DNA of 36,412 bases from an uncultured Acidobacteriota bacterium (GTDB lineage Bacteria > Acidobacteriota > Terriglobia > Bryobacterales > Bryobacteraceae), in NCBI GenBank assembly GCA_937952345.1, contig CALFYN010001033.1, positions 1 through 36,412 on the forward strand, given 5' to 3'. A model generated the notes under the pieces. It did no database searches, was not told where the DNA came from, and saw only the letters and a program-made list of their open reading frames with translations. This document shows, piece by piece, positions 2,963-19,300 of the stretch. Position 1 is the stretch's first letter. The number at the start of each line of letters is the position of its first letter. The translations under genes and the position numbers were made by a program.

Positions 2963-3720
2963 TCGATATACATAGCCACATCCTCTATGGACTGGACGAC
3001 GGTTCCAAGAGCCTAGAGGAGAGCGTGGCAATGCTGCAGATGGCGGCAGCATCCGGGACGACGGACATTGTTGCCACCCCCCATGCCGATCTCGAATATG
3101 AGTTTCAACCGGATCTGATCCGGGAGCGCGTCGATGAATTGACTGCAGCCACTGGGGGGAAGCCATGTATCCACGAGGGATGTGATTTTCACCTCACATT
3201 CGACAACATCCAGGATGCGATAGCCAACCCTCGCAAGTACACGATCGGGCATAAGAGCTACCTGATGGTGGAATTCTCCGACATGCTCATTTTTCCCAAT
3301 ACGGCGGAGATCTTCGAACGGATGCGGAATGCCGGGATCTATCCAGTGATTACCCATCCGGAGCGCAATCCATTGTTGCAGCAGCGCATGCCGGCATTGG
3401 AGCGATGGGTACAGGAGGGCAGTTACATCCAGGTGACGGCGCAATCCCTGTTTGGACGATTCGGCAAGACCGCGCGGAGTTTTTCCTTGGAGTTGCTGCG
3501 GCGGAATCTGGTGCACTTCATCGCCAGCGATGCCCACGACACGAAACATCGTCCTCCCGTGCTCAAAGACGCCTTCCAGTGGGTAGCCGAGGAGTACGGC
3601 GAGGAACTGGCCCAACGACTCTTCGTCGACAACCCACGAGCCACAATCGAGGGCGCTCCATTGACAACCGTGCCGGTAACGGAAGTTCCTTCGCGCAGTT
3701 GGTACCAATTCTGGCGCTGA
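2959..3720 (+). CDS. CpsB/YwqE-type PHP-domain protein-tyrosine phosphatase (probable CTG start)
   Basis: The tracked ORF starts at GTG 3025. The frame is open from 2833 and encodes the family N-terminus (L/M)IDIHSHILYGLDDGSKSLEES just upstream. There is no ATG/GTG/TTG in frame between 2833 and 3025. CTG 2959 sits where the family Met is, with GAGGAG at 2945-2950. Later motifs: VATPH, ITHPER, ASDAH. Confidence 0.75.
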   Translation: MIDIHSHILYGLDDGSKSLEESVAMLQMAAASGTTDIVATPHADLEYEFQPDLIRERVDELTAATGGKPCIHEGCDFHLTFDNIQDAIANPRKYTIGHKSYLMVEFSDMLIFPNTAEIFERMRNAGIYPVITHPERNPLLQQRMPALERWVQEGSYIQVTAQSLFGRFGKTARSFSLELLRRNLVHFIASDAHDTKHRPPVLKDAFQWVAEEYGEELAQRLFVDNPRATIEGAPLTTVPVTEVPSRSWYQFWR

Positions 3721-3740
3721 AATCCGTCTACATTGGGAGT

Positions 3741-4574
3741 ATGAGGCTGCTGCTTTCGATGCTGGCTTGCACTTCCGTGATTTTTGCCCAGGATGCTCTG
3801 GAGATCGTTCGCCGGTCGGTGGAACGGGATCAGGCAAACTGGGAGCGCGCAAAGGAATACACCTATGTGGTGCACTCCAGGATGCGCGAGCGCGACGCGG
3901 GGGGACGGGTCAAGAAAGAGGACCGCGAAGCAGAGGAGGTCGTCATCCTCTACGGCGAGCCTTATGAGAGAAAGATTGAGAAGGACGGCAAGCCACTCTC
4001 TTCGGCGGAGCAACACAAGGAGCAGCAGAAGTTCGACAAAGAAATGACCAAGCGCCAAAACGAATCGCCCGAACAGCGCCGAAAACGCATTGCGGCGTTC
4101 GAGAAGAAGCGCCGCGAACAGAGGGAATTCGCCAGGGAGATTCCAGATGCTTACCATTTCCAGCTGATGGGCGAGGAGATGATCGGCGGCCGAAAAACGT
4201 GGGTGATCGAGGCCACGCCACGCGCTGAATACCGGCCGCGGAACTCCAGGGCGGCGATGTTGAAGAAGTTCAAGGGGCGCATGTGGATCGACCAACAGGA
4301 ATACCAGTGGGTGCGAATGGACGGCGAAGTCATCGAGACGGTGTCCTGGGGGCTGTTCCTGGCACGACTGGCGAAGGGCTCGAGGATTTTTTTCGAGCAG
4401 GTGAGAGTGAATGATGAAGTGTGGATGCCGAAGCAATTGAAAGTGGACCTCGATGCCCGGATCGCCTTGATCAAAAGGTTTCAGGGCGATATTGATGTGC
4501 GGTTCCAGGATTTCCGGAAGTTCCAGAGCGAATCTCGCATTGTTTCGACGGCGGAATTGACAACCACACCATAG
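3741..4574 (+). CDS. Secreted LolA-like / outer-membrane lipoprotein-sorting-like protein
   Basis: ATG 3741 gives the signal peptide MRLLLSMLACTSVIFAQ. The C-terminal half (KGRMWIDQQEYQWVRMDGEVIE, VNDEVWMPKQLKVDLDARI) resembles the LolA-like fold family. The 5' extension to 3405 overlaps the phosphatase gene and is rejected. Confidence 0.55.
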   Translation: MRLLLSMLACTSVIFAQDALEIVRRSVERDQANWERAKEYTYVVHSRMRERDAGGRVKKEDREAEEVVILYGEPYERKIEKDGKPLSSAEQHKEQQKFDKEMTKRQNESPEQRRKRIAAFEKKRREQREFAREIPDAYHFQLMGEEMIGGRKTWVIEATPRAEYRPRNSRAAMLKKFKGRMWIDQQEYQWVRMDGEVIETVSWGLFLARLAKGSRIFFEQVRVNDEVWMPKQLKVDLDARIALIKRFQGDIDVRFQDFRKFQSESRIVSTAELTTTP

Positions 4575-4605
4575 CCTGGCTGCGCGAGTTCTGATGGCAG
4601 GTGGA

Positions 4606-5046
4606 TCAAGTCAGAGGCACATCGAAATAATCCAGCGCCCATTCGCGCATGTAACGGACTCGGGTGGGGTCGACGCGGTAGAGGATGAATTCGGGATTGT
4701 CTACGGATTTAAGGTAGGCACGAAGGAGTGGGTTGGTGTCCCAGATCTGCTGTTTGACGGCGAGATCGTCGACGGTACTGGCGGTGCCAGTGATGCGTAC
4801 CTGGTCGTGGTCGTTGGTGAGATAGCAGAGTTCCACTTTCGCCGAGGGGCCGATTTCCGTAGTCTTGTTCGATGAGCGAAGCGAGGCGACGTAGATGGTG
4901 AAACCGTCGGAACGAACCGGAGACACAGGGCGGACACGGGGTTGGTCGCCGTCGATAGTGGCGAGCATCGGGAATTTGTCGGCGGCGACGACGCTAAGGG
5001 CAAGGCCGCGCAGTTCTTCCGGTTTGGGAGCGGGTGGGAGTTTCAT
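4606..5046 (-). CDS. Pyridoxamine 5'-phosphate oxidase-like (general stress protein 26-like) FMN-binding protein
   Basis: 146 aa. The pattern FPMLATIDGDQPRVRPVS, VELCY and RITG is typical of the PNPOx-like split-barrel family. Confidence 0.6.
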   Translation of the reverse strand: MKLPPAPKPEELRGLALSVVAADKFPMLATIDGDQPRVRPVSPVRSDGFTIYVASLRSSNKTTEIGPSAKVELCYLTNDHDQVRITGTASTVDDLAVKQQIWDTNPLLRAYLKSVDNPEFILYRVDPTRVRYMREWALDYFDVPLT

Positions 5047-5052
5047 GTGTAC

Positions 5053-6663
5053 TTAGCCGACCATCGCTTTGGCGTCTTCAAGAATTAGGACGAGATGCTC
5101 TTCGCTTACGTAGCTTTCAGCGTATAGTTTGCAGATGTTCTCAGTTCCTGAAGGGCGGGCGGCGAACCAGCCGTTTTGTGTAGCGACTTTGAGTCCGCCT
5201 ATGGATGCTCCGTTGCCGGGTGCTTTGGTGGCTTTTAGCTCGATGCGGTCGCCGGCGAGTTCGAGGGCGGGAATGGATTCGGGGTCGAGCTTGCCGAGCC
5301 GGGCTTTCTGTTCGGGTGAGGCGGGAGAGTCGATACGGGTGTAGAAGCAGCGGCCGAATTTTTCGGTGAGGGCCGTGTAGGCGAGGCCGGGATCCCTGCC
5401 CGTCACGGCGGTGATTTCGGCGGCGAGCAGGCCGAGAATGAGGCCGTCTTTGTCGGTGCTCCAGGCGGTGCCGTCCCGGCGGAGGAAGCTGGCTCCGGCG
5501 CTCTCTTCGCCACCGAAGCAGATGCTGCCGTCGTGGAGTCCTTTGGCGAACCATTTGAATCCGACGGGGACTTCGTAGAGGCGGCGCCCACGGCTGGCGA
5601 CAACGCGATCGAGGATTCCACTGGAAACGAGCGTTTTGCCGACAGCGGCGTCTTCGCTCCAATCAGGACGGTGGGAGAGCAGATAATCGACGGCGACGGC
5701 GAGATAGTGGTTGGGGTTGAGGAGGCCTGAGGACGGAGTGACGATGCCGTGCCGGTCGGCATCGGGATCATTGCCGAAGGCAATGTCGAACTTATCTTTG
5801 AGGCCGACGAGTCCGGCCATGGCATAGGGGCTGGAGCAATCCATGCGGATCTTGCCGTCGTGATCGACAGTCATGAAGCCGAAGGTAGGATCGAGTTTGG
5901 GGTTGGTGACGGTGATGTCGATGTTGTGGACTGTGGCGACGTGCTCCCAGTAGGGGAGCGAGGCTCCGCCGAGGGGATCGACGCCGATGCGGAGTTTGGC
6001 GGCGCGGATGGGTTCGAAGTCGATAACGGCGGCGAGATCGAGGACGTAGGGGAGAATGAGGTCTTGGGCGTTGGCCTTGCCTGAGGCGGTGCGCTTGACA
6101 CCGCGGTTGTCATCCTTCATCAATTCGTTGGCGCGCAACTGAATCCAGCCGGTGGCGTCGGTGTCGGCTGGGCCACCGTGGGGAGGATTGTATTTGAACC
6201 CTCCATCCTGCGGCGGGTTGTGGGACGGCGTGATGACAACGCCATCGGCATGGCCGGTGGAGCGGCCATGGTTGTAGACCAGGATGGCGCGGGAGATGAC
6301 GGGGGTAGGGGTGACTCCGTCATTTTGCTGGATGACGGCGTTGACTCCGTTGCCAAGGAAAACTTCGAGAGCTGTCTTTTCGGCGGCAGATGAGGCGGCG
6401 TGCGAATCCTTTCCGAGGTAAAGGGGTCCGTCGATCCCTTGGGCGGCGCGGTATTCGCAGATGGCCTGGCTGATGGCGAGAATATGTGTCTCGTTGAATG
6501 TGCCATCGCTGGGGTTGCCACGATGCCCGCTGGTGCCAAAGCTGACGAGTTGGAGAGGATTTTCGATGTCGGGCTCTTTGTCGTAGTAGGCCTGGACCAG
6601 TTGCGTAGGGTTAATGAGCATCTGCGCGGTTGCGGGCTTGCCCGCCATCGGATGAAGTCCCAT
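5053..6663 (-). CDS. pgm: Phosphoglucomutase (alpha-D-glucose phosphate-specific)
   Basis: Active-site loop [19 protein letters not shown] and N-terminus [27 protein letters not shown]...FGTSGHRG, which matches the E. coli Pgm N-terminus. The start is therefore placed at ATG 6663 rather than the ORF-track 6813. Confidence 0.93.
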
Positions 6664-6733
6664 GAGAATGATTGTAGCCAGATGACAGACGACGCCGTGC
6701 CTTTTCGCCTGAGGAAGCAGGAGGATTGATCCT

Positions 6734-7126
6734 ATGGGATTGGCCGAACGGAGAAAAATGAAGGAATTGCAGGAGAACGTGTTGCCAGGGCGCGTCAAAG
6801 AGATTGCGGACATCTGCGGAGCAGAGATTCCGTATGAGGTGGATTGGGACAGCTTTCAGGACGATGCGCAGGGGTTGAATTTCATGGATAGCCTCTCCTG
6901 CCACCGGCTGAACATGGCGCTGCGGGTGATTTGCATCGATGACATGGGAAAAGAAGCAGTCCGCGAATCGCTGAAGCGAGTGCGACTGCGTAACGTGAAG
7001 GACAAATCGGCGATGAAGTTGAGCTTCGCCGATGGGACGTTGGAGATGCATTGCGCGTATGCACTGGCGACCGAAGGGATGCACAGCGATGGCGAAATCC
7101 GTCAGGTGCTGATGCAAGGGCTATAG
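6734..7126 (+). CDS. Hypothetical protein (130 aa)
   Basis: Clean ORF divergent from pgm across a 70-nt gap. No motif recognised. An alternative internal start exists (MKELQ). Confidence 0.5.
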
Positions 7127-7127
7127 G

Positions 7128-8585
7128 TTACTTGCGCTTCCAAGTGTGGGTTTGGAAATCGAAGTCGTAGGCGTTGCGATCGGGTAGGGGCGGAGCGCTG
7201 GACTTGGGGAAGTACTGCGCCAAGTCGGCTTTAAGAGCTTTGTGCGCGGGGTCGCCGGCAAGGTTGCGATACTCGTTGCGATCGGCGATGTTGTCGTAGA
7301 GTTCTTCGGTGCCGTCGCTGTAGCGGATATAGCGCCAGCGTTCGGTGCGAACCATGTGATTGCCTGGGCCGAAGGTGGATACGGCGGGGCGATGCTTTGC
7401 GGTGGGGTTTTTGAGCACGGGCAGGAGCGATTCGCCCTCGTTCTCTTTCTTGGCGGGGAGGCCGCAGAGATCGAGGATGGTGGGGTAGAGATCGAGCAGG
7501 CTGACGGATTGCTTGCGAGTGGTGCCTGTGGCGTTGACTCCGGGTCCGGCGATGATGAGGGGGATGTGGGTGGCGCGTTCCCAGAGGGTGGATTTGTGCC
7601 AGTGCACTTTTTCGCCGAGGTGCCAGCCGTTGTCAGACCAGAAAACGATGACGGTGTTCTTTCCGTAGGGCGATGCTTCGAGGGCATCGAGGACCATGCC
7701 GACCATGGCGTCGGCGAAGCTGATGCAGGCGAGGTAGGCTCGGACGGCGTCTTTCCATTTGCCCTCTTTGACGATGCGCTCGTGCTCGGCGCGGCGGGCG
7801 GCGGCGAGCTTTTTGGCGATGGGCGGGACATCGTCGAGGTCGTTGGCAGGCACTTCCGGAATGCGCGGATCCGGGTACATGTCGAAGTATTTCTTAGGAG
7901 CGAATAGCGGGATGTGGGGGTGCCAGAATCCGATGGCGAGGAAGAAGGGCTTGGCGTGCTGTTTCTTGAGGAAGTCACGGGCATAGCGCACGGCTTTCAT
8001 GTCTCCGTAGTCTTCCTCTTTGTAGTCGAGGACGCCCCAATCGAATTCACCGGGGAAGTTGTCGAGGCCGTTGAAAGGATGACCCGCAGGGTTGGGGATT
8101 TTCTTGACCCAGGGATACCATTCGAGGCGCCGGTACCAGGGGTCGTCGAATTCCTGGAGTTGGAAGTGATCCCACTGATCGGGAGGATTGAAGCCGGAAG
8201 TGTGATGGAAGACCTTGCCCGCGCCAGCGGCGTAATAGCCGTGCTTGCGGAGGTACATGGGGATGGTGACGTAATCGGGATGAGCGGGACGCCACCATTG
8301 ATCGTTGTTGTAGACGCCGGTGGTATCGGGGCGCATGCCTGTGAGCAGGGCGGTGCGCGAGGGGCAACAGAGCGGGGAGGCGCAATGAGCGTTGGAGAAG
8401 AGTGCGCCGCGACGGGCAAGGCGATCGATGTTCGGAGTTTTGACGCCCGGGTAACCGCCGAGGCAGCCCACCCAATCGTTCATGTCGTCGACGGACAACA
8501 ACAACACGTTCGGTTTTTGTTTCGGCTGGGCGAAGGCAGTGGCCGCGCCGGCACCGATGGATTGGAGGAATGTTCGGCGATTCAT
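7128..8585 (-). CDS. Formylglycine-dependent sulfatase with Tat-type signal
   Basis: N-terminus MNRRTFLQSIGAGAATAFA (twin-Arg). Sulfatase signature SPLCCPSRTALLTGMRP (C-x-P-x-R). NVLLLSVDD metal-binding start. Confidence 0.92.
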   Translation of the reverse strand: MNRRTFLQSIGAGAATAFAQPKQKPNVLLLSVDDMNDWVGCLGGYPGVKTPNIDRLARRGALFSNAHCASPLCCPSRTALLTGMRPDTTGVYNNDQWWRPAHPDYVTIPMYLRKHGYYAAGAGKVFHHTSGFNPPDQWDHFQLQEFDDPWYRRLEWYPWVKKIPNPAGHPFNGLDNFPGEFDWGVLDYKEEDYGDMKAVRYARDFLKKQHAKPFFLAIGFWHPHIPLFAPKKYFDMYPDPRIPEVPANDLDDVPPIAKKLAAARRAEHERIVKEGKWKDAVRAYLACISFADAMVGMVLDALEASPYGKNTVIVFWSDNGWHLGEKVHWHKSTLWERATHIPLIIAGPGVNATGTTRKQSVSLLDLYPTILDLCGLPAKKENEGESLLPVLKNPTAKHRPAVSTFGPGNHMVRTERWRYIRYSDGTEELYDNIADRNEYRNLAGDPAHKALKADLAQYFPKSSAPPLPDRNAYDFDFQTHTWKRK

Positions 8586-11614: not shown

Positions 11615-12811
11615 ATGGCTGCCATTGCACCATCAACGCGCATCGGAGAATTGCGGCCCACGGCTGTGAACTCGATTCTGGCTGAGGTGCGCCAATTGCA
11701 AGCGGAGGGGAAGAATCTTGTTTCGTTGATGCGCGGGGAGCCTGATTTGCGGACCCCGGAACACATAGTGGAGGCGGCCGAGAAAGCTCTGCGGGCGGGG
11801 CGGACAGGGTATCCGGACAACCGGGGCGAGCCGCGGCTGCGGGAAGCGGTACGGACAAAACTGGAGCGGGATAACGGGCTGCAGTACGACCCGGGGACAG
11901 AGATCCTGGTTACCACAGGCGCCACGTTCGGGATTCATGCGGCTCTAACTGCGGTGCTGAATCCAGGAGATGAGGTGTTGTTGCCGGAGCCGGTCTACGA
12001 TGCATACTGTTCGCCGGTGATGCTGGCGGGTGGAGTGTTGAAACCGGTGCCCGCTGTAATTGAGAACGGCCGCTTTGTGCTGTATCCGGAGATGATTGAA
12101 GCTGCGTGCAGCTCGCGCACGCGCATGTTGTTGCTCAACACACCATGGAATCCGACGGGTACGGTCTTCACGCGGAGTGAATTGGAGCGGATCGCGGATG
12201 TAGTGCTGCGGCATGGGCTGGTTTTATTGAGCGATGAGATCTACGAAGCGATCACGTACGAGGGGAAGACACACATCTCACCCGCATCGCTTTCAGATGA
12301 GTTGCGCGAACGCACTATTCTGGTGAACAGCGTTTCGAAAACGTACGCGATGACTGGATGGCGGGCGGGATATTGCGCGGCGGGGGCAGCGATTACACAG
12401 GCGATGTTCCTGGTTTTGCAACAGTCAAGCCGGGGTCCGGCGACGTTCGTACAGGATGCCTGTACGGAAGCTTTGATCGGACCGCAGAGTTGCGTGGCAG
12501 CCATGCGCGCGGAGTACGCGGCACGGCGTGGGGAGGTGTTGCGCGCTTTGGATGGAGTTGGGGGATGCCGGATGCTGGCTCCGGAAGGTGGGTTCTTCGC
12601 GATGGCTGATGTAAGGGCGCTGGGGATGGCTTCAAACGATGTGCGGCGGGCGCTGATGCGGCATCATGGAGTGGTGACAGCACACGGATCGGCGTACGGC
12701 CCAAGCGGTGAAGGAACGCTCCGCATTTCGTTTGCCACGGGAGGCGAGACGCTACAGCGCGGATTGGAACGATTGTGCGCGGGGTTGGCCGCGCTGCGGA
12801 CAGTGGAATGA
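11615..12811 (+). CDS. PLP-dependent class I/II aminotransferase (aspartate/aromatic-type)
   Basis: ATG 11615. Blocks GEPDLRTPEHIVEAA, YPDNRGEPRLREAV, NTPWNPTG, and the PLP-lysine motif SVSKTYAMTGWRAGY. Confidence 0.88.
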   Translation: MAAIAPSTRIGELRPTAVNSILAEVRQLQAEGKNLVSLMRGEPDLRTPEHIVEAAEKALRAGRTGYPDNRGEPRLREAVRTKLERDNGLQYDPGTEILVTTGATFGIHAALTAVLNPGDEVLLPEPVYDAYCSPVMLAGGVLKPVPAVIENGRFVLYPEMIEAACSSRTRMLLLNTPWNPTGTVFTRSELERIADVVLRHGLVLLSDEIYEAITYEGKTHISPASLSDELRERTILVNSVSKTYAMTGWRAGYCAAGAAITQAMFLVLQQSSRGPATFVQDACTEALIGPQSCVAAMRAEYAARRGEVLRALDGVGGCRMLAPEGGFFAMADVRALGMASNDVRRALMRHHGVVTAHGSAYGPSGEGTLRISFATGGETLQRGLERLCAGLAALRTVE

Positions 12812-15696
12812 ATCTGGTTTCGATCGAATCGGTACCGGTGGATCGCGAAGCGCTGCGGACCGCGCTGGAGGCGGAGGTGCAGGGGGAGGTGCGCTTCGAC
12901 AAGGTGTCGCGGGCGCTATATTCCACCGATGCCAGTGTGTACCAGATCATGCCTGTCGGCGTAGTGGTGCCGAAGTCGCAGGAGGATCTGATTCGCGCGG
13001 TAACTGTGTGCCGGCGGTACGGGTGTCCGGTGACGCTGCGCGGTGGCGGTACTTCGCAGGCCGGGCAGGCGATCGGCGAAGGGGTGCAGATCGACATTTC
13101 GAAGTACGTGAACCGACTGCTGGAGGTGGATGTCGAGCAGGGTTGGGCTCGGGTGGAGCCGGGGATTGTGCTGGATGAATTGAACGCGTTGCTGAAGCCG
13201 TATAACGTCCGTTTTGCACCGGATATCTCCACGGCGAGCCGGGCAACGTTGGGTGGGATGATGGCAAATAATTCCTCTGGCGCTCGCAGCGTGTTGTACG
13301 GAAAGACCATCGATCACGTGCTGGAACAGAGGGTGCTGCTGGCGGATGGGACGATCACGGAGTTTCGCGATCTGGATGCGGCGGCGCTGAATGACAAGTG
13401 TTCGGGGGGTACGTTCGAGTCGGAGTGTTACCGCGTGGTGCGGGATGTGGTGGCAACGCACGCCGATGAGGTGAGGGCACGATTTCCGAAGGTGATGAGG
13501 CGGGTGGGCGGCTACAACCTGGATGAGTTTCTCGATCCGGCACGACCATTTAATCTGTCGAAGCTGATGGTGGGTTCAGAAGGAACCTTGGGCATCGTGC
13601 TGGAAGCGAAGATCCGGTTGGTGCCCCTGCCGAAGCACAAATCGGTGCTGGCGATTGAGTTCGATACTCTGTTGGATGCCTTGGGGGCGACTCCGGTGAT
13701 TCTTCGCCACAAGCCCTCAGCAGTGGAGGTGATGGACAAGTTCATCCTGGATCACACGCGGCAGAGTCCGGCGCTTGATAGGGTGCGGCGCACGTTTATT
13801 CAGGGGGATCCGGGGGCCCTGCTGTGCGTGGAGTTCTATTCCGATACGGCGGAGGCGCTGCGGCCGCGCATGGAAGCGGTGGAGCAGGATGTGCGGGAGC
13901 ACGGCGTGGGGACGCACTTTTTCTACGCGATGGATTTGCCCGCACAGGCGCGCATCTGGAGCGTTCGGGAGTCGGCGCTGGGGCTGTCGATGGCGATGAA
14001 GGAGGACGCGAAGTCCATCTCGTTCGTCGAGGATACGGCGGTGGATCCCGCGAAGTTACGGGATTATATCGACCGCTTTCTGGGGATCATCCGAAAGCAT
14101 CAAACGGTGGCCGGGATTTATGCGCATGCCTCGGTGGGCTGCCTACACGTGCGTCCAGTGGTGAACATGAAGACCGAGGACGGGATACGAAAGTTCGAGG
14201 CGATCGCCAATGAAGTGGCTGATCTGGTGCTGGAGTTTGGGGGGGCGCTTTCAGGGGAGCATGGCGACGGGTATGTGCGGAGTCCCTTTCTGGAGAAGAT
14301 GTTCGGGCCGGTGTTGTACGAAGCGTTTCGTACCATCAAGCACACTTTCGATCCGAAGGGATTGATGAATCCGGGGAAGATTGTCGATTCGCCGCCATTG
14401 ACCGAGAATCTGCGTTTCGGCGCGGGATATGAAACTCCGAATCCGAAAACGTATTTCGACTACTCGGAATACGGCGGAATGGGCGGCGCGGTGGAAATGT
14501 GCAGTGGGGTGGGAGCCTGCCGGAAGAAGTTGGATGGGACGATGTGCCCATCTTACATGGCGACGCGCGAAGAAATGCACACGACGCGTGGGCGCGCGAA
14601 CGTGCTGCGCATGGCGATGGCGGGCCGGTTGGGGGAAGCAGGATTGGGCGATGACGGTGTGAAGCAGGTGCTGGATCTGTGCCTGGAATGCCGCGCCTGC
14701 AAAGCGGAATGCCCGGTGGGCGTGGATGTGGCTCGGTTCAAGAGCGAGTTTCTGGCCGATTACTATTCGCGGCACGGCGTGCCGCTGCGGGCGAAAATCC
14801 TGGGGCATGTGGCGGAAGTAGCAGCGTGGGGCAGCAGTTTCGCTCCCATTGCGAATTGGGCGGCGCGCGGGCCGTTGGCGCGGTGGTTTAACTCGCATTA
14901 CGTTGGAATTGATAAGAGACGGACGCTGCCGCGATGGAATTCGCGACCGCTGCGGCAGCGAATATTACGAACGGAAGGAGAGGTGCTGCTGTTCTGTGAT
15001 ACGTTCACGAATTACTACCATCCGGAAGTGGGCGAGGCCGCGGTACGAGTGGTGGAGGCGGGTGGCTTCGGGACGGGACTTGCGCCTAATGTGTGTTGCG
15101 GCCGGCCGCTGATCTCACAGGGATTGCTGGATGAGGCGCGAGCGAAGGCGCGGCGCAACACCGAACTGCTGTATCCCCTGCTGGAACAAAAGAAACGGTT
15201 TTTGTTTTGTGAACCGAGTTGCCTTTCGGCGATGAAGGAGGACGCTCCGAGCCTGCTCCGCGGGGATGAACAGCGGCGGGCGCGGGAAGTGGCGGCGGCG
15301 TGCCTGCTGTGGGAAGAATTCGTGGAAGTAGAAATCGGAGCGAAGCTGAGGCTGCGCACGGGTCCCAAGAAGATCCTGTTGCACGGGCATTGCCATCAGA
15401 AGTCGATGGGACTGCTAGCCGCTGCGAAGGCACTGCTGGGCCGTGTGCCGGAAGCGGCGGTGGTGGATCTGGATGCAGGATGTTGCGGCATGGCAGGATC
15501 GTTCGGGTACGCCAAGGAGCACTACGAAGTGTCGCGAACGATGGCGGAGCGGAAGTTGTTGCCGGCGGCGCGTAGCATGGGTCCGGATACGGTGCTAGTA
15601 GCGGCAGGGATTTCGTGCCGTCAGCAGGTGGAAGAACTGGCCGAGGTGCAAGCGCAGCATCCGGCGATTTTGATTGCGAGCCTGCTGGAAGTATGA
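12808..15696 (+). CDS. Fused FAD-binding oxidase / 4Fe-4S / CCG-domain dehydrogenase (YdiJ-like D-2-hydroxyacid dehydrogenase architecture)
   Basis: ATG 12808 overlaps the aminotransferase stop (ATGA). N-terminal GlcD-like FAD domain (RGGGTSQAGQ). Fe-S motifs CSGVGACRKKLDGTMCP and CLECRACKAECP. C-terminal CCG motifs NVCCGRP and AGCCGMAG. Confidence 0.85.
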   Translation: MNLVSIESVPVDREALRTALEAEVQGEVRFDKVSRALYSTDASVYQIMPVGVVVPKSQEDLIRAVTVCRRYGCPVTLRGGGTSQAGQAIGEGVQIDISKYVNRLLEVDVEQGWARVEPGIVLDELNALLKPYNVRFAPDISTASRATLGGMMANNSSGARSVLYGKTIDHVLEQRVLLADGTITEFRDLDAAALNDKCSGGTFESECYRVVRDVVATHADEVRARFPKVMRRVGGYNLDEFLDPARPFNLSKLMVGSEGTLGIVLEAKIRLVPLPKHKSVLAIEFDTLLDALGATPVILRHKPSAVEVMDKFILDHTRQSPALDRVRRTFIQGDPGALLCVEFYSDTAEALRPRMEAVEQDVREHGVGTHFFYAMDLPAQARIWSVRESALGLSMAMKEDAKSISFVEDTAVDPAKLRDYIDRFLGIIRKHQTVAGIYAHASVGCLHVRPVVNMKTEDGIRKFEAIANEVADLVLEFGGALSGEHGDGYVRSPFLEKMFGPVLYEAFRTIKHTFDPKGLMNPGKIVDSPPLTENLRFGAGYETPNPKTYFDYSEYGGMGGAVEMCSGVGACRKKLDGTMCPSYMATREEMHTTRGRANVLRMAMAGRLGEAGLGDDGVKQVLDLCLECRACKAECPVGVDVARFKSEFLADYYSRHGVPLRAKILGHVAEVAAWGSSFAPIANWAARGPLARWFNSHYVGIDKRRTLPRWNSRPLRQRILRTEGEVLLFCDTFTNYYHPEVGEAAVRVVEAGGFGTGLAPNVCCGRPLISQGLLDEARAKARRNTELLYPLLEQKKRFLFCEPSCLSAMKEDAPSLLRGDEQRRAREVAAACLLWEEFVEVEIGAKLRLRTGPKKILLHGHCHQKSMGLLAAAKALLGRVPEAAVVDLDAGCCGMAGSFGYAKEHYEVSRTMAERKLLPAARSMGPDTVLVAAGISCRQQVEELAEVQAQHPAILIASLLEV

Positions 15697-16969: not shown

Positions 16970-17566
16970 TCAGGCGCGGTTGGCGGTTCGGAATTCGGGG
17001 TCGAACCAAGTGCGGAGGTTGGGGTAGCCTACGATTTGCGGATTCTTTTTGAAGCGCAGGAAATAGGGAGCGCCACCGCGGATGCCGCCTTCGACGAGGT
17101 CTTCCCAGGAAGCGATCTCGAGGGGTCCGGTTTCCGGATTGGATGAGAACCGGATACCGTCGCTGAGCGTTTGGGGGAATTGGAAGACGAAACGGGAAAG
17201 GGGGGCGGGGCGGAGAAGGAGTTTGTCGGCCGCTTCCTGAATCGCGGAGGCGGGCGGTTGACGGAGTTTCAGGCGGATGACGGCGTACGCTCGCGATTCG
17301 ACGGCGTCAAGGTCGTAGGACAAGGCACGGTAGATGTAGCGGATGACGTCCGGGGTTCGCTCGGTGGCGAGGTGGTAGCTCCACTGGACTTCGGTAGGCC
17401 GCTGGTGCGGGTCTGCTTCGGGGACGAAGAAGCGGCCAGCCCATTGTGCGGAGTTGGCGCGAACGGTGCGGGGGATCCATTCGATGTCTGGGACGGCACG
17501 ATAGGTGTCGGGGGCGATGCGGGCTATGGATTCGATCCAAATTTTGGTCAGTTCGGCTTCCGTCAT
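16970..17566 (-). CDS. Hypothetical protein C of orphan operon (198 aa, cytoplasmic)
   Basis: ATG 17566 lies 19 nt after the stop of the 445-aa ORF and is preceded by GAGGA. No signal peptide, TM segment or recognised motif. Confidence 0.7.
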   Translation of the reverse strand: MTEAELTKIWIESIARIAPDTYRAVPDIEWIPRTVRANSAQWAGRFFVPEADPHQRPTEVQWSYHLATERTPDVIRYIYRALSYDLDAVESRAYAVIRLKLRQPPASAIQEAADKLLLRPAPLSRFVFQFPQTLSDGIRFSSNPETGPLEIASWEDLVEGGIRGGAPYFLRFKKNPQIVGYPNLRTWFDPEFRTANRA

Positions 17567-17585
17567 GGCTTCCTCATTCTGCCTG

Positions 17586-18923
17586 CTAGCGATAACGCTG
17601 GACGATCTCCTCGATTTTGAAAAGAGCGTTTCCTACATCGTCGAATTCATAACTGAACCAAACGAGAGCGTGAAAGGCGTGGATGACTTCTTCGTGGGAA
17701 TCATAGACTCCGGCGCCACCCCCATAGTACTTGGTGACTCCTCCGTGGGAGAACCGAAGACAGGCTTCGAAGTTGTTCATGCCCATATCGTCAGAGCTGA
17801 AGGTGGCGCCGACCGCCACGGGATCGCGATCTGCCAGCGAGGCGTACCAGGTGACTCCGTTCACCTTCTTCTTACGATTGTGGAGTGTGAGCCTGGGATA
17901 GGGGGCTTCAAGGACTTTGGTTCCGTTGGAGACAGTGGGATCTGACCAGACGAGATAGGTTTTCGCATCACCGGGACAGCCGACCTGCATGAGCAAACCG
18001 CGGACGAAACGGACGATGGCCTGGCACTCTCCGGACTTGTCGATGTTATCGGCCATGGGCCAGGCACCGCCTGTTGTGTTGAAGAAGGTAGGGTGCTTGT
18101 ATTCGGCGGGAACATCAGGATGCGCTTCGAGCGTATAGAAGGGGAACTTCTCCATCAGATGCCCGACGATGGTGTGGGGATCGAGGGAGGCAACTTCACC
18201 GACGAGGGAGACGGCGGTTTCGGCGCGCTTTTTGGTGACGCCATCCTCAGGCTCGCCCTGATTGATGGGCTTGTTCATGACCAGGTAGCAGGTGTTCTGG
18301 GTTGTAACGTCGTAGTTGACCGGGGGTGTGACCACCATCCAGTCAATGGAGAGATCAAGTTCGTCGACACGTTTCGGGGTCTTGGTGTCGGAGGTGAGGG
18401 TAACCTTGAGTTTGCCGGGCTTGAAGGTGGCCTGACCGTTGAACTCAATGCCTTCAGGTCCTGTACCGGCGATGGTGCCTTGCTCTGCACATGCGCCTGG
18501 AGGACCGGCTTCGAAAGTGAGATCGAGCTTCACCTTCTTGTCGAGGTTGTGGACAATAGGGCTTCGGAGGTCTCTGCCGTCGACCCATTCAGGGACGGGG
18601 TAGCGGGCACCGGTGTTGGTCCACTTGTCTTCTTCATTCTTGATCAGGCCGTAATCCGACCAGAAGCGGAGTGAGATGAGCTTGATCCATTGGAGGCGCT
18701 TCGGGCAGGGCTTGACGGGCTCAGTGGGATCTTCATTTGGGGTCTTGCCAGTCTCTTCGATTTCACCGCCCGCGGCGATGTAGGCATCCATCCACTTTTC
18801 TCGGAGTACTTCGTCCTCGGGACCCATGGTAAGGGGGCGTCCGCCCGTTTCGGCGGCAATGGCATCATTGGCTGCTTTGGCGGCCTCTTCGTTGATGGGT
18901 TTAGCGGCGCGTCGATTGCTCAA
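17586..18923 (-). CDS. Hypothetical multi-domain protein B of orphan operon (445 aa); C-terminal Cys-His-Asp module resembles the transglutaminase/papain fold
   Basis: The TTG start shares TTGA with the upstream stop. It has a helical N-terminus, a beta-rich middle (LQWIKLISLRFWSDYGLIKNEEDKWTNTGARYPVPEW), and C-terminal SGEC(300)QAIVRFVRGLLMQVGCPG, then H348 and D365/D367 (LHNRKKKVNGVTWYASLADRDP). No signal peptide. Confidence 0.75.
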   Translation of the reverse strand: MSNRRAAKPINEEAAKAANDAIAAETGGRPLTMGPEDEVLREKWMDAYIAAGGEIEETGKTPNEDPTEPVKPCPKRLQWIKLISLRFWSDYGLIKNEEDKWTNTGARYPVPEWVDGRDLRSPIVHNLDKKVKLDLTFEAGPPGACAEQGTIAGTGPEGIEFNGQATFKPGKLKVTLTSDTKTPKRVDELDLSIDWMVVTPPVNYDVTTQNTCYLVMNKPINQGEPEDGVTKKRAETAVSLVGEVASLDPHTIVGHLMEKFPFYTLEAHPDVPAEYKHPTFFNTTGGAWPMADNIDKSGECQAIVRFVRGLLMQVGCPGDAKTYLVWSDPTVSNGTKVLEAPYPRLTLHNRKKKVNGVTWYASLADRDPVAVGATFSSDDMGMNNFEACLRFSHGGVTKYYGGGAGVYDSHEEVIHAFHALVWFSYEFDDVGNALFKIEEIVQRYR

Positions 18924-19300
18924 GCCTTCACCCGCCCTTCACCATATAGTTCATAGCCTTCGAGAAGATTGAGCTTCTCGTCGGGTTTGAGGCGGGCAGT
19001 GCTAAGGATCTCATGGGCCCACGGTGTGCAGTCCTTATCTCCGAATTTCGGGCCGTAGCGGAGGGCGAAGTCGAGGAAGCGGAATGAGTCCTCTTCGGTG
19101 ACAATGCCGTGGCTTCTGGCATTGGCGAGCGCGGCACTGGCGAGGCCTTCGAGATCGGCTCCGGTCATGGTGGCAGTTCTGGCAGGGTATGTATGGCACA
19201 GCCGAGAAATCAGGCGACGGGTGAAATCAACCGTTAGTTGACGGCGGAATGCGGTCATCTGTTCTGAGCGAATCGTCAGCATAAGGGGCATGCAGCGCAA
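18920..19300 (-). CDS. Hypothetical small helical protein A of orphan operon (about 120 aa)
   Basis: ORF with AAGGAG (19313-19318) upstream. Start is ambiguous (TTG 19300, ATG 19291 or ATG 19282). Sequence: MLTIRSEQMTAFRRQLTVDFTRRLISRL...GIVTEEDSFRFLDFALRYGPKFGDK. No named family recognised. Confidence 0.65.
   Translation of the reverse strand: MRCMPLMLTIRSEQMTAFRRQLTVDFTRRLISRLCHTYPARTATMTGADLEGLASAALANARSHGIVTEEDSFRFLDFALRYGPKFGDKDCTPWAHEILSTARLKPDEKLNLLEGYELYGEGRVKA

Follow-up and report, generated by a model that had tools for sequence, protein, structure and literature searches.

What might be the function of three adjacent 'hypothetical' genes packed head to tail among genes for metabolism and transport? 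The question is raised by a locus on contig CALFYN010001033.1, from an uncultured bacterium of the Bryobacteraceae (Acidobacteriota), of which a stretch of 36,412 nt (hereafter the window) was analysed. The three genes, here called A, B and C, lie on the minus strand of the window. The original prediction for this locus proposed a helical adaptor, a multidomain effector with a thiol-enzyme module and, downstream of these, an immunity-type partner. Comparative genomics and structure prediction support this layout and point to a more specific reading, which we regard as probable: A-B-C would be a type VI secretion system (T6SS) cargo cassette, made up of a split Tap adaptor C-lobe (A), an effector toxin (B) and an immunity protein (C). 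The cassette is termed an orphan since no T6SS gene lies in the window.

Homologues of the A-B-C cassette adjoin T6SS genes

Relatives of the three genes were surveyed at 66 genome loci (given below as L numbers) using locally built profiles. More than 160 relatives of B were found, all annotated as 'hypothetical' save P0099, which carries the UniRef name 'Transglutaminase-like domain-containing'. In a gammaproteobacterial metagenome-assembled genome (MAG), the gene order was VgrG, DUF4123, a gene for a 122-aa protein, B and a gene for a 243-aa protein; the 122-aa protein proved to be a homologue of A (E = 1.5e-16) and the 243-aa protein a homologue of C (E = 5e-48). The order VgrG, DUF4123 (172–198 aa), A, B and C, all on one strand, was seen at L006 and L007 (Gammaproteobacteria), L039 and L041 (Planctomycetales) and L060 (Pyrinomonadaceae). 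At L060 the cassette lies inside a T6SS cluster that comprises ClpV, VgrG, DUF4123, PAAR, FHA-DUF4123 and TssB/TssC. VgrG, DUF4123 or T6SS core genes adjoin homologues at L037, from Rhodanobacter sp. C03, and at L051 as they do at these five loci, and also at L071 and L073. With such trios placed immediately after vgrG and DUF4123 genes, and once within a full T6SS cluster, A-B-C probably belongs to a familiar class of cargo modules, and the term 'undescribed system' in the original prediction was an overstatement.

The copies closest to that in the window come from its own lineage. A B gene at 94% identity was found in an uncultured Candidatus Solibacter MAG (L009), and others at 61–63% identity in MAGs of Bryobacteraceae/Bryobacterales and other Acidobacteria. 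The syntenic Bryobacterales loci, carried by the assemblies JAXLQM01, JAFDVS01, JAEUQG01 and CAYOBO01, share with the window the series ILVD_EDD, Gfo/Idh/MocA, A, B, C, CitMHS and FAD-oxidase, and this metabolic synteny is kept in five genomes, in which the identity of B falls to 61%. The same metabolic neighbourhood across these genomes indicates that the cassette has long been resident in this lineage. When the window was compared with the four other syntenic loci, the ratio of nonsynonymous to synonymous substitution (dN/dS) was 0.17–0.36 for A, 0.07–0.20 for B and 0.16–0.30 for C; with values of 0.07–0.36 across all three, A, B and C are real genes, each under purifying selection.

Protein A is probably the effector-binding lobe of a Tap adaptor

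In Tap adaptors, the N-lobe, which binds VgrG, is conserved and the C-lobe, which binds the effector, is variable, and the two lobes can each have an open reading frame (ORF) of their own, as is the case for TecT and co-TecT (Colautti et al. 2024, PMC11582642). In Tap3, an alpha/beta N-domain (residues 1–198) is followed by a C-terminal 5-helix bundle that contacts the N-terminal MIX domain of Tke5 (PDB 9r8g; PMC12909789). On the combined evidence of gene order, a fusion protein and the predicted fold, A is best read as the stand-alone effector-binding C-lobe of a DUF4123/Tap adaptor, similar to co-TecT. Concerning gene order, A lies between a short DUF4123 gene and B at L006, L007, L039, L041 and L060, and the DUF4123 proteins encoded next to A are about as long as the Tap3 N-domain by itself. 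The fusion protein, P0201, joins FHA (26–88), DUF4123 (133–250) and A (314–417) domains in a single chain that is collinear with the split genes of L073 (E = 4e-76 for FHA-DUF4123 and E = 5e-21 for A), and its A domain retains an internal start, 'MLTIRPEQM'. Because the DUF4123 match in P0201, the one aligned member in which both could be located, is N-terminal to the A domain, A is not a DUF4123-domain protein in the Pfam sense; none of 92 family members (A and 91 relatives) had a Pfam match via its A domain, DUF4123 (PF13503) included.

As for the fold, the AlphaFold2 (AF2) model of A was all-alpha, with a predicted local distance difference test (pLDDT) score of 90.5. When it was compared by Foldseek with the PDB, the only meaningful match was Tap3 (9r8g_B; probability 1.0, template modelling score 0.69, root-mean-square deviation 3.2 Å, 109 columns, E = 0.1). 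Given that A is all-alpha, the published description of the Tap3 domains would place this match on the Tap3 C-domain, no other part of Tap3 being entirely helical. P0201 matched only FHA domains in the PDB and gave no bridge to Tap3. An index-free search yielded 1,316 clusters of A relatives at 50% identity; word-indexed searches had returned only two relatives for A and four for C. Nearly all members of the A family are stand-alone proteins of ∼118 aa or tandem doubles, and all the names checked were 'hypothetical'.

Two characterized systems resemble the cassette. The TecT/co-TecT/TseT/TsiT system of Pseudomonas aeruginosa (PMC11582642) has the same order of short DUF4123 lobe, small effector-binding protein, effector and immunity protein, and co-TecT (PA3906) occupies the position of A and, by functional analogy with that work, would share the role proposed for A. 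There are, however, differences: TecT docks on a PAAR protein while the homologous A-B-C loci have VgrG directly upstream, TseT is a nuclease while B has a transglutaminase fold (see below), and the TecT system has its DUF4123 half at the locus, which the window cassette has not. In the Tap3-Tke5-Tki5 system of Pseudomonas putida, the gene order is vgrG, tap, effector and immunity, and the predicted fold of A matches Tap3. Yet Tap3 is a single protein of 290 aa, whereas the A-B-C homologues have one gene for each lobe; Tke5 forms pores and carries a MIX domain, in contrast to the N-terminal tag of B, which is ∼57 aa long and belongs to no Pfam family; and no sequence similarity was detectable.

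An N-terminal tag of B is paired with A

The tag of B is characterized by the motif RPL-x3-A-x2-AA[DN]...GRxLT...LRxxW[MV]xxY...GG. The ∼57-aa domain has no match in Pfam and is present in ten B genes from four lineages (that of the window and those of L004, L005, L009, L042, L006, L007, L039, L041 and L060). A single-domain A gene lies directly upstream of all ten, and the 39 B genes without the domain have none directly adjacent (Fisher p ∼1e-7, with no correction for phylogeny); four of these 39 have an A-family gene farther upstream or in tandem-double form. At all five loci outside the Bryobacterales synteny group that have a trio with this domain, VgrG and a short DUF4123 gene were found upstream on the same strand.

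The tag is not confined to B. A metagenome scan with this domain detected four loci, L070–L073 (Table 1), that encode shorter proteins (236–313 aa) with other C-termini, which share with B just profile positions 1–80. One of these C-termini is weakly metallopeptidase-like (anthrax lethal factor/M90), and the other three have no Pfam match. A homologue of A lies immediately upstream of the tag protein in L071, L072 and L073; the L070 contig starts ∼230 nt before the gene. DUF4123 is present at L071 and L073, and VgrG at L073, and the small ORFs downstream of the four tag proteins may be their immunity genes. With A upstream of tag proteins that differ in their C-termini, the tag and A thus appear, from these sequence comparisons, to be cognate to each other and to be combined with more than one type of toxin domain. 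The A protein and the ∼57-aa tag may amount to a delivery code ('split-adaptor plus tag') that serves T6SS effectors of soil phyla, is widespread and has not been described; the B-type tag was found in MAGs of Acidobacteriota, Planctomycetota and Gammaproteobacteria. As described in the literature, the MIX, FIX, RIX, PIX and WHIX domains resemble the tag in being short N-terminal domains that are common to effectors whose toxin domains differ and that have a link to loading of the spike. Compared with them, and by description only for RIX, PIX and WHIX, the B domain differs in its strict pairing with a putative stand-alone Tap C-lobe gene.

Other arrangements of A were also observed. Tandem-double A proteins (250–266 aa) are encoded at L037 (7122–7922), L051 (7210–7989), L060 (4463–5227) and L071 (3545–4327); at L037 and L051 they lie directly ahead of B genes that lack the tag, and the double form may recognise its effector differently. 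At L060, the region between VgrG/DUF4123 and A-B-C (3335–7353) holds genes for PAAR, a GNAT acetyltransferase, the double-A protein and two proteins of 359 and 320 aa with no Pfam match, probably a second effector/immunity pair. Two MAGs of Terriglobia/Bryobacteraceae (L038, 6798–10838; L043, 5235–8738) have A, an extra ORF that overlaps the B start, and a tag-less B; the extra ORF is 267 aa long in L038 and was deduced in L043 from a similar gap of 650 nt. Neither locus has C, and at both a DUF4123 gene lies on the opposite strand. The DUF4123 gene of L043 indicates that Bryobacteraceae do carry DUF4123 adaptors.

The enzyme part of B has a transglutaminase fold with an unusual set of invariant residues

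The AF2 model of B (pLDDT 95.4) consists of a helical hairpin (residues 1–57), a linker, a beta-sandwich and an alpha/beta core. When this model was compared with the PDB by Foldseek, the top matches were human TG3, TG2 and factor XIII (FXIII), with E values of 4e-8 to 1e-3 and a probability of 1.0; these alignments extended over 440–500 columns and covered both the sandwich and the core, at a sequence identity of 8–10%. The Transglut_core profile gave weak matches in seven of 93 B relatives (best E = 9e-4), and none for the B of the window at E ≤ 1. B has in common with these transglutaminases and Transglut_core the beta-sandwich, the core and a Cys at the N-terminus of a helix: C300, which is invariant, opens helix 300–314. 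The other invariant residues are W288, E299 and Q301 (which flank C300), R305, N383 and E386-A387, while C388 is present in 90 of 93 sequences.

The original prediction had described the end of B as a 'Cys-His-Asp-like module'. The transglutaminase/papain-like fold and the invariant Cys300 bear out one part of that description; the other part failed, since no invariant His or Asp follows C300 in the 93 sequences (H393 is present in 76% and D408 in 45%). The position of the catalytic His in TG2, TG3 and FXIII is taken in B by the invariant E386, with no conserved Asp after it. By inspection against the TG2 motif W-N-F-His335-C-W, the Glu of the B motif N-F-Glu386-A-C falls where TG2 has its catalytic His, and both proteins have the N-F-x motif on the 'His strand'.

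An arrangement of this type is known in Bacillus subtilis Tgl (PDB 4P8I), a transglutaminase of the spore coat with a Cys116/Glu187 dyad and Glu115 as a back-up, and B has the invariant Glu299-Cys300 and Glu386 in the equivalent order. However, the essential His200 of Tgl aligns with an invariant Gly in B, and Tgl, which is not a toxin, lacks the beta-sandwich domain. Homology between the two was not taken as established, the profile match obtained with hhalign extending over just 19 columns (E = 0.066), and the likeness in residue pattern was retained as an analogy. From its modelled fold and conserved residues, B is probably a transglutaminase-fold thiol enzyme with Cys/Glu chemistry. It may be the first T6SS-delivered enzyme of this fold to have a Cys/Glu centre rather than Cys-His-Asp, and it may kill by cross-linking or deamidating a bacterial target.

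Neither B nor some 60 homologues showed a Sec/Tat signal or a hydrophobic N-terminal segment. Three homologues are fused to other domains (eCIS_core and PG_binding_1 in L052, PG_binding_1 in L053 and, weakly, LysM in L049), and fusions of this sort, being typical of polymorphic toxins, suggest that B is a polymorphic-toxin-like domain. The L052 protein, in which eCIS_core (DUF4157) and PG_binding_1 precede the B core, would also suit a different route, with B as cargo of a contractile injection system other than the T6SS (a phage-tail-like particle or an extracellular contractile injection system, eCIS) or as a toxin secreted independently of contact. The N-terminus of L052 is similar to that of EAT14 of Chitinophaga rupis, an analogous eCIS toxin with DUF4157, LysM and transglutaminase domains that is toxic to E. 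coli and yeast (PMC11297309). EAT14 was, however, rejected as a relative of B: its domain is Transglut_prok (PF09017), of the microbial transglutaminase type, with a Cys-Asp-His triad established by mutagenesis, and thus belongs to a different Pfam family and fold class. Furthermore, the B of the window has no DUF4157 but the A-paired domain found with VgrG and DUF4123, and no eCIS gene is present in the window. Delivery by such a route is therefore very improbable compared with loading on a T6SS spike.

The pair formed by B and C also invites comparison with Tae/Tai. Tae effectors are small, single-domain Cys-His enzymes of the papain-like NlpC/P60 type and are Hcp-loaded. Like B-C, Tae/Tai combines a thiol enzyme of the papain/NlpC-P60/transglutaminase class that lacks a signal peptide with a periplasmic lipoprotein partner (for C, in many lineages), and the fusion of some B relatives to peptidoglycan-binding domains adds to the resemblance. 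B differs in its length (445 aa), in its link to an adaptor and VgrG and in the missing His, and the C of the window is not exported.

A separate set of B-like genes was observed in an uncultured Salinivenus sp. MAG, CAYOWD01 (contigs L054, L056–L059, L061–L065 and L067–L069), which holds more than 12 divergent paralogs (24–31% identity), often in tandem arrays of two to four. None has C directly downstream, and one C-like ORF lies upstream of B in L057. Many of these paralogs begin with MGCxQSK or MGxxQS, like a eukaryotic N-myristoylation/palmitoylation motif; they could be host-targeted effectors, or the contigs could be a mis-binned set.

Protein C accompanies B and differs in its predicted compartment

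A homologue of C lies directly downstream of 44 of the 47 full-length B genes of the main clade, often overlapping the B stop; the three exceptions are one B gene where a contig stops and two from a divergent subgroup. Homology of C spans phyla (E = 5e-48 to Gammaproteobacteria and 3e-31 to Sorangium), and no Pfam family was found in 28 members. B has an enzyme fold, yet C follows nearly every B gene, A lies beside every B that has the N-terminal domain, and both are conserved with B across phyla; the co-occurrence on which the original prediction depended was therefore found, and the prediction withstood the profile and Foldseek searches.

A lipoprotein or Sec signal was detected on C in about 12 lineages, which include most of the T6SS-linked loci (L006, L007, L037, L039, L060, L013 and L049). 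No signal was present on C at L041, in Sorangium/Polyangium or in the Bryobacterales, that of the window included. An examination of the N-termini of 12 signal-bearing C proteins (among them those of L013, L015, L035, L037, L039, L048, L049, L053 and L055) revealed that nine keep an internal Met at the point where the signal-less C proteins, including that of the window (17566), begin. Read from the sequences, this suggests either repeated gain and loss of export through 5′ extension or dual cytoplasmic and periplasmic isoforms. The exported C, together with the fusions of B to peptidoglycan-binding domains, argues for an envelope target; the lack of a signal on the C of the window points to a target in the cytoplasm, or to a C that acts solely in the cytoplasm of the producer. 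The immunity protein may have switched repeatedly between cytoplasm and periplasm; if this is true, the target would be reachable from both compartments, or immunity would act at two sites.

The compartment of C bears as well on whether the genes could form an intracellular toxin–antitoxin or anti-phage defence system, with B as the toxin, C as the antitoxin and A as a sensor or regulator. The compact three-gene layout and translational coupling would fit such a system, as would the cytoplasmic location of all three proteins in this organism and the occurrence of B-C pairs alone in many Polyangia genomes. However, in the many lineages in which C is an exported lipoprotein and B is not, the two are incompatible with an intracellular toxin–antitoxin pair. 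No PADLOC or PHROGs match was obtained, the window has no mobile-element, integrase or defence-island neighbours, and the relatives of A are adaptor lobes. Defence-system, toxin–antitoxin and phage readings were rejected for want of a supporting match or context, and we give an intracellular role of this kind hardly any weight.

A model for the cassette and the points that weigh against it

From the observed gene anatomy, conservation, folds, fusion protein and genomic association with T6SS genes we infer a mechanism that extends to protein–protein contacts, secretion, toxicity, substrate and the protective role of C. B would be an effector with no export signal, built of the tag, a flexible linker, the beta-sandwich and the thiol enzyme. 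A would bind the N-terminal tag of B and then dock onto a short DUF4123 protein; this protein, as the lobe that binds VgrG, would tether the A-B complex at the C-terminus of the VgrG spike, and firing of the T6SS would deliver B into a neighbouring bacterium. Cys300 might then form a thioester with an amide of the glutamine or gamma-glutamyl type, Glu299 and Glu386 serving as the base that replaces the customary His/Asp, in the manner of Bacillus Tgl; a protein or a peptidoglycan peptide could thereby be cross-linked, deamidated or cleaved. C would bind and block B, protecting the producer and its kin. As neither vgrG nor the gene for the DUF4123 lobe is near the cassette in this genome, both would have to be supplied in trans.

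Several observations weigh against this model. The 36-kb window contains no T6SS gene, none occurs at distances of up to 8 kb from the cassette in the other four syntenic loci of Bryobacterales, and the cassette sits in a conserved metabolic neighbourhood. Around 30 Sorangium/Polyangium loci, which make up the majority of the family, have B-C with no A, VgrG or DUF4123 nearby, so the B-C core pair is not strictly tied to the T6SS; the B of these Polyangia is ∼395 aa long and lacks the N-terminal tag. The match of A to Tap3 has a Foldseek E value of just 0.1, with the aligned range of Tap3 not given, and P0201 is a single fusion protein among the 150 best A relatives, from one contig of 4.5 kb. 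The similarity between B and Tgl is not significant at the sequence level, and the enzymatic activity of B is not assured since the canonical His and Asp are not conserved. Finally, the C of the window has no export signal, in contrast to the lipoprotein or exported C of most T6SS-linked loci, and its role here could therefore differ. A literature search on the T6SS in Solibacter/Acidobacteria yielded nothing useful.

The alternative that gains most from this setting is that the trio has been domesticated and has lost its link to secretion, B being an intracellular transglutaminase-like protease or cross-linker, C its cytoplasmic regulator or substrate and A a chaperone, perhaps co-expressed with the upstream sugar-oxidoreductase gene. 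The synteny with ILVD_EDD, Gfo/Idh/MocA, CitMHS and FAD-oxidase in five genomes would be expected of such a trio, and so would a base composition equal to that of the flanks, the lack of a promoter or terminator between the cassette and the Gfo gene, a C with no signal peptide, the distance from any T6SS gene and the purifying selection on all three genes. Against it, A and the tag appear to serve adaptor-mediated loading in every informative context, and their retention under purifying selection is hard to explain without a secretion partner. Bryobacteraceae do have DUF4123 genes (L043), and effector–immunity cassettes far from T6SS clusters are common. We therefore consider domestication unlikely, although somewhat less so than the two other alternatives, and favour the T6SS cargo cassette. 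A bolder proposal, that A and the tag form a delivery code, that B is a Cys/Glu transglutaminase-fold T6SS effector and that immunity has switched its location, all three together, is tentative and on balance doubtful.

Anatomy of the locus and its surroundings

The ORF listing contains the three tightly packed minus-strand ORFs (Table 1). The junctions were read from the sequence as the original prediction had given them, with a tetranucleotide shared by the A stop and the B start, a 19-nt gap between B and C with GAGGA before the C ATG, and a gap of 35 nt between the stop of the Gfo/Idh/MocA gene (19336) and A (19300). This last gap contains the AAGGAG. The start of A is ambiguous: in most of the 1,316 family relatives the protein begins at the residue matching M7 (ATG 19282), while the closest Bryobacterales homologues start a few codons upstream of the M7 equivalent, with which TTG 19300 agrees.

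Table 1. Positions of the genes, signals and protein regions of the A-B-C cassette (window coordinates), and of regions with tag-bearing proteins at other loci (coordinates of each locus)
Feature	Position	Strand	Description	Basis
Gene A	19300-18920	minus	126 aa from TTG 19300	ORF listing
Gene A, alternative in-frame starts	ATG 19291; ATG 19282	minus	120 aa from ATG 19282	
Gene B	18923-17586	minus	445 aa, TTG start; predicted T6SS cargo effector	ORF listing
Gene C	17566-16970	minus	198 aa, ATG start; predicted cognate immunity protein	ORF listing
A/B junction	18923-18920	minus	TGA of A and TTG of B share TTGA	Read from sequence
B stop	17588-17586	minus	TAG, followed by the gap to C	
GAGGA	17575-17571	minus	4 nt ahead of the C ATG	Read from sequence
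AAGGAG	19318-19313	minus	Strong Shine-Dalgarno-like site upstream of A	Read from sequence
B residues 1-57	18753-18923	minus	N-terminal helical domain, putative delivery tag	AF2 model, co-occurrence with A
B residues 58-78	18690-18752	minus	Low-confidence Pro/Lys-rich linker	AF2 model
B residues 79-215	18279-18689	minus	All-beta sandwich	AF2 secondary structure; Foldseek
B residues 216-445	17589-18278	minus	Transglutaminase/papain-like catalytic core	Fold match, conservation
B codons for E299-C300-Q301	18029-18021	minus		
B codon for E386	17768-17766	minus		
Region with tag-bearing protein, L073	4001-5430		Other C-terminus	
Region with tag-bearing protein, L071	1197-2858		Other C-terminus	
Region with tag-bearing protein, L070	230-1126		Other C-terminus	
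Region with tag-bearing protein, L072	352-954		Other C-terminus	

None of the three proteins had a match at E ≤ 1 in Pfam, NCBIfam, PADLOC or PHROGs, and for these profile libraries the earlier statement that they fall into no recognisable families is correct. When the single A, B and C sequences were compared with those of the PDB, only chance-level matches were obtained, and the B and A profiles gave nothing above that level either. No signal peptide or transmembrane segment was found in A, B or C of the window, again as had been anticipated. No terminator-like site was found on the minus strand between Gfo/Idh/MocA and A; the scan detected no promoter-like site, and terminator-like sites solely on the opposite strand, but such a scan is uninformative for Acidobacteria.

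The flanking genes scanned encode a phosphoglucomutase, a sulfatase, MFS, dehydrogenases, CitMHS, ILVD/EDD, a 3-keto-disaccharide hydrolase, Kelch and OEP/HlyD/ABC-2 proteins, all of them metabolic or transport functions, in line with the original prediction. That prediction had also reported neither secretion machinery nor tRNA in the window, and the searches agreed: there was no VgrG, DUF4123 or other T6SS gene, no tRNA and no Rfam family. The base composition of the cassette equals that of its flanks and is uniform over the region. Across the window (1–36412), the GC skew of the plus strand is strongly positive throughout, whatever the orientation of the genes, and the cumulative skew climbs monotonically with no switch. 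On the plus strand at 12775–15696, the window has one ORF of 973 aa for a FAD-oxidase/Fe-S (glycolate-oxidase-like) protein, where L001, the syntenic locus of a Bryobacteraceae genome, has two neighbouring genes (505 and 477 aa); the difference reflects either a fusion in the window or a split/frameshift in L001.

Novelty and significance

The general plan, in which a T6SS effector is accompanied by a Tap adaptor in two parts and by an immunity gene, is of a known kind, as exemplified by TecT/co-TecT/TseT/TsiT and Tap3/Tke5/Tki5. What appear to be undescribed are the A-domain family, the N-terminal tag, a transglutaminase-fold T6SS effector with no conserved His/Asp, and the C family; the detachment of the window copy from any T6SS gene is also new. 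In the effector catalogues searched, no transglutaminase-like T6SS effector of the B type is mentioned. One preprint refers to a 'transglutaminase toxic domain' of a Pantoea VgrG, but this domain is probably of a lysozyme/glycosidase-like type. A toxin of transglutaminase fold whose catalytic His is replaced by Glu would be an unusual case among interbacterial toxins, and a switching of immunity localisation raises the question of the site at which the effector acts.

These results would turn three 'hypothetical' genes and several thousand public relatives into a testable T6SS adaptor-lobe/effector/immunity module. The stand-alone A genes and the fusion of A to DUF4123 provide independent genomic support for the recently proposed two-lobe model of Tap adaptors, and the N-terminal tag, if modular, could be used to load foreign cargo. 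The A domain may also serve as a marker for new effectors in Acidobacteriota, Planctomycetota and Myxococcota, phyla in which T6SS biology is almost unexplored.

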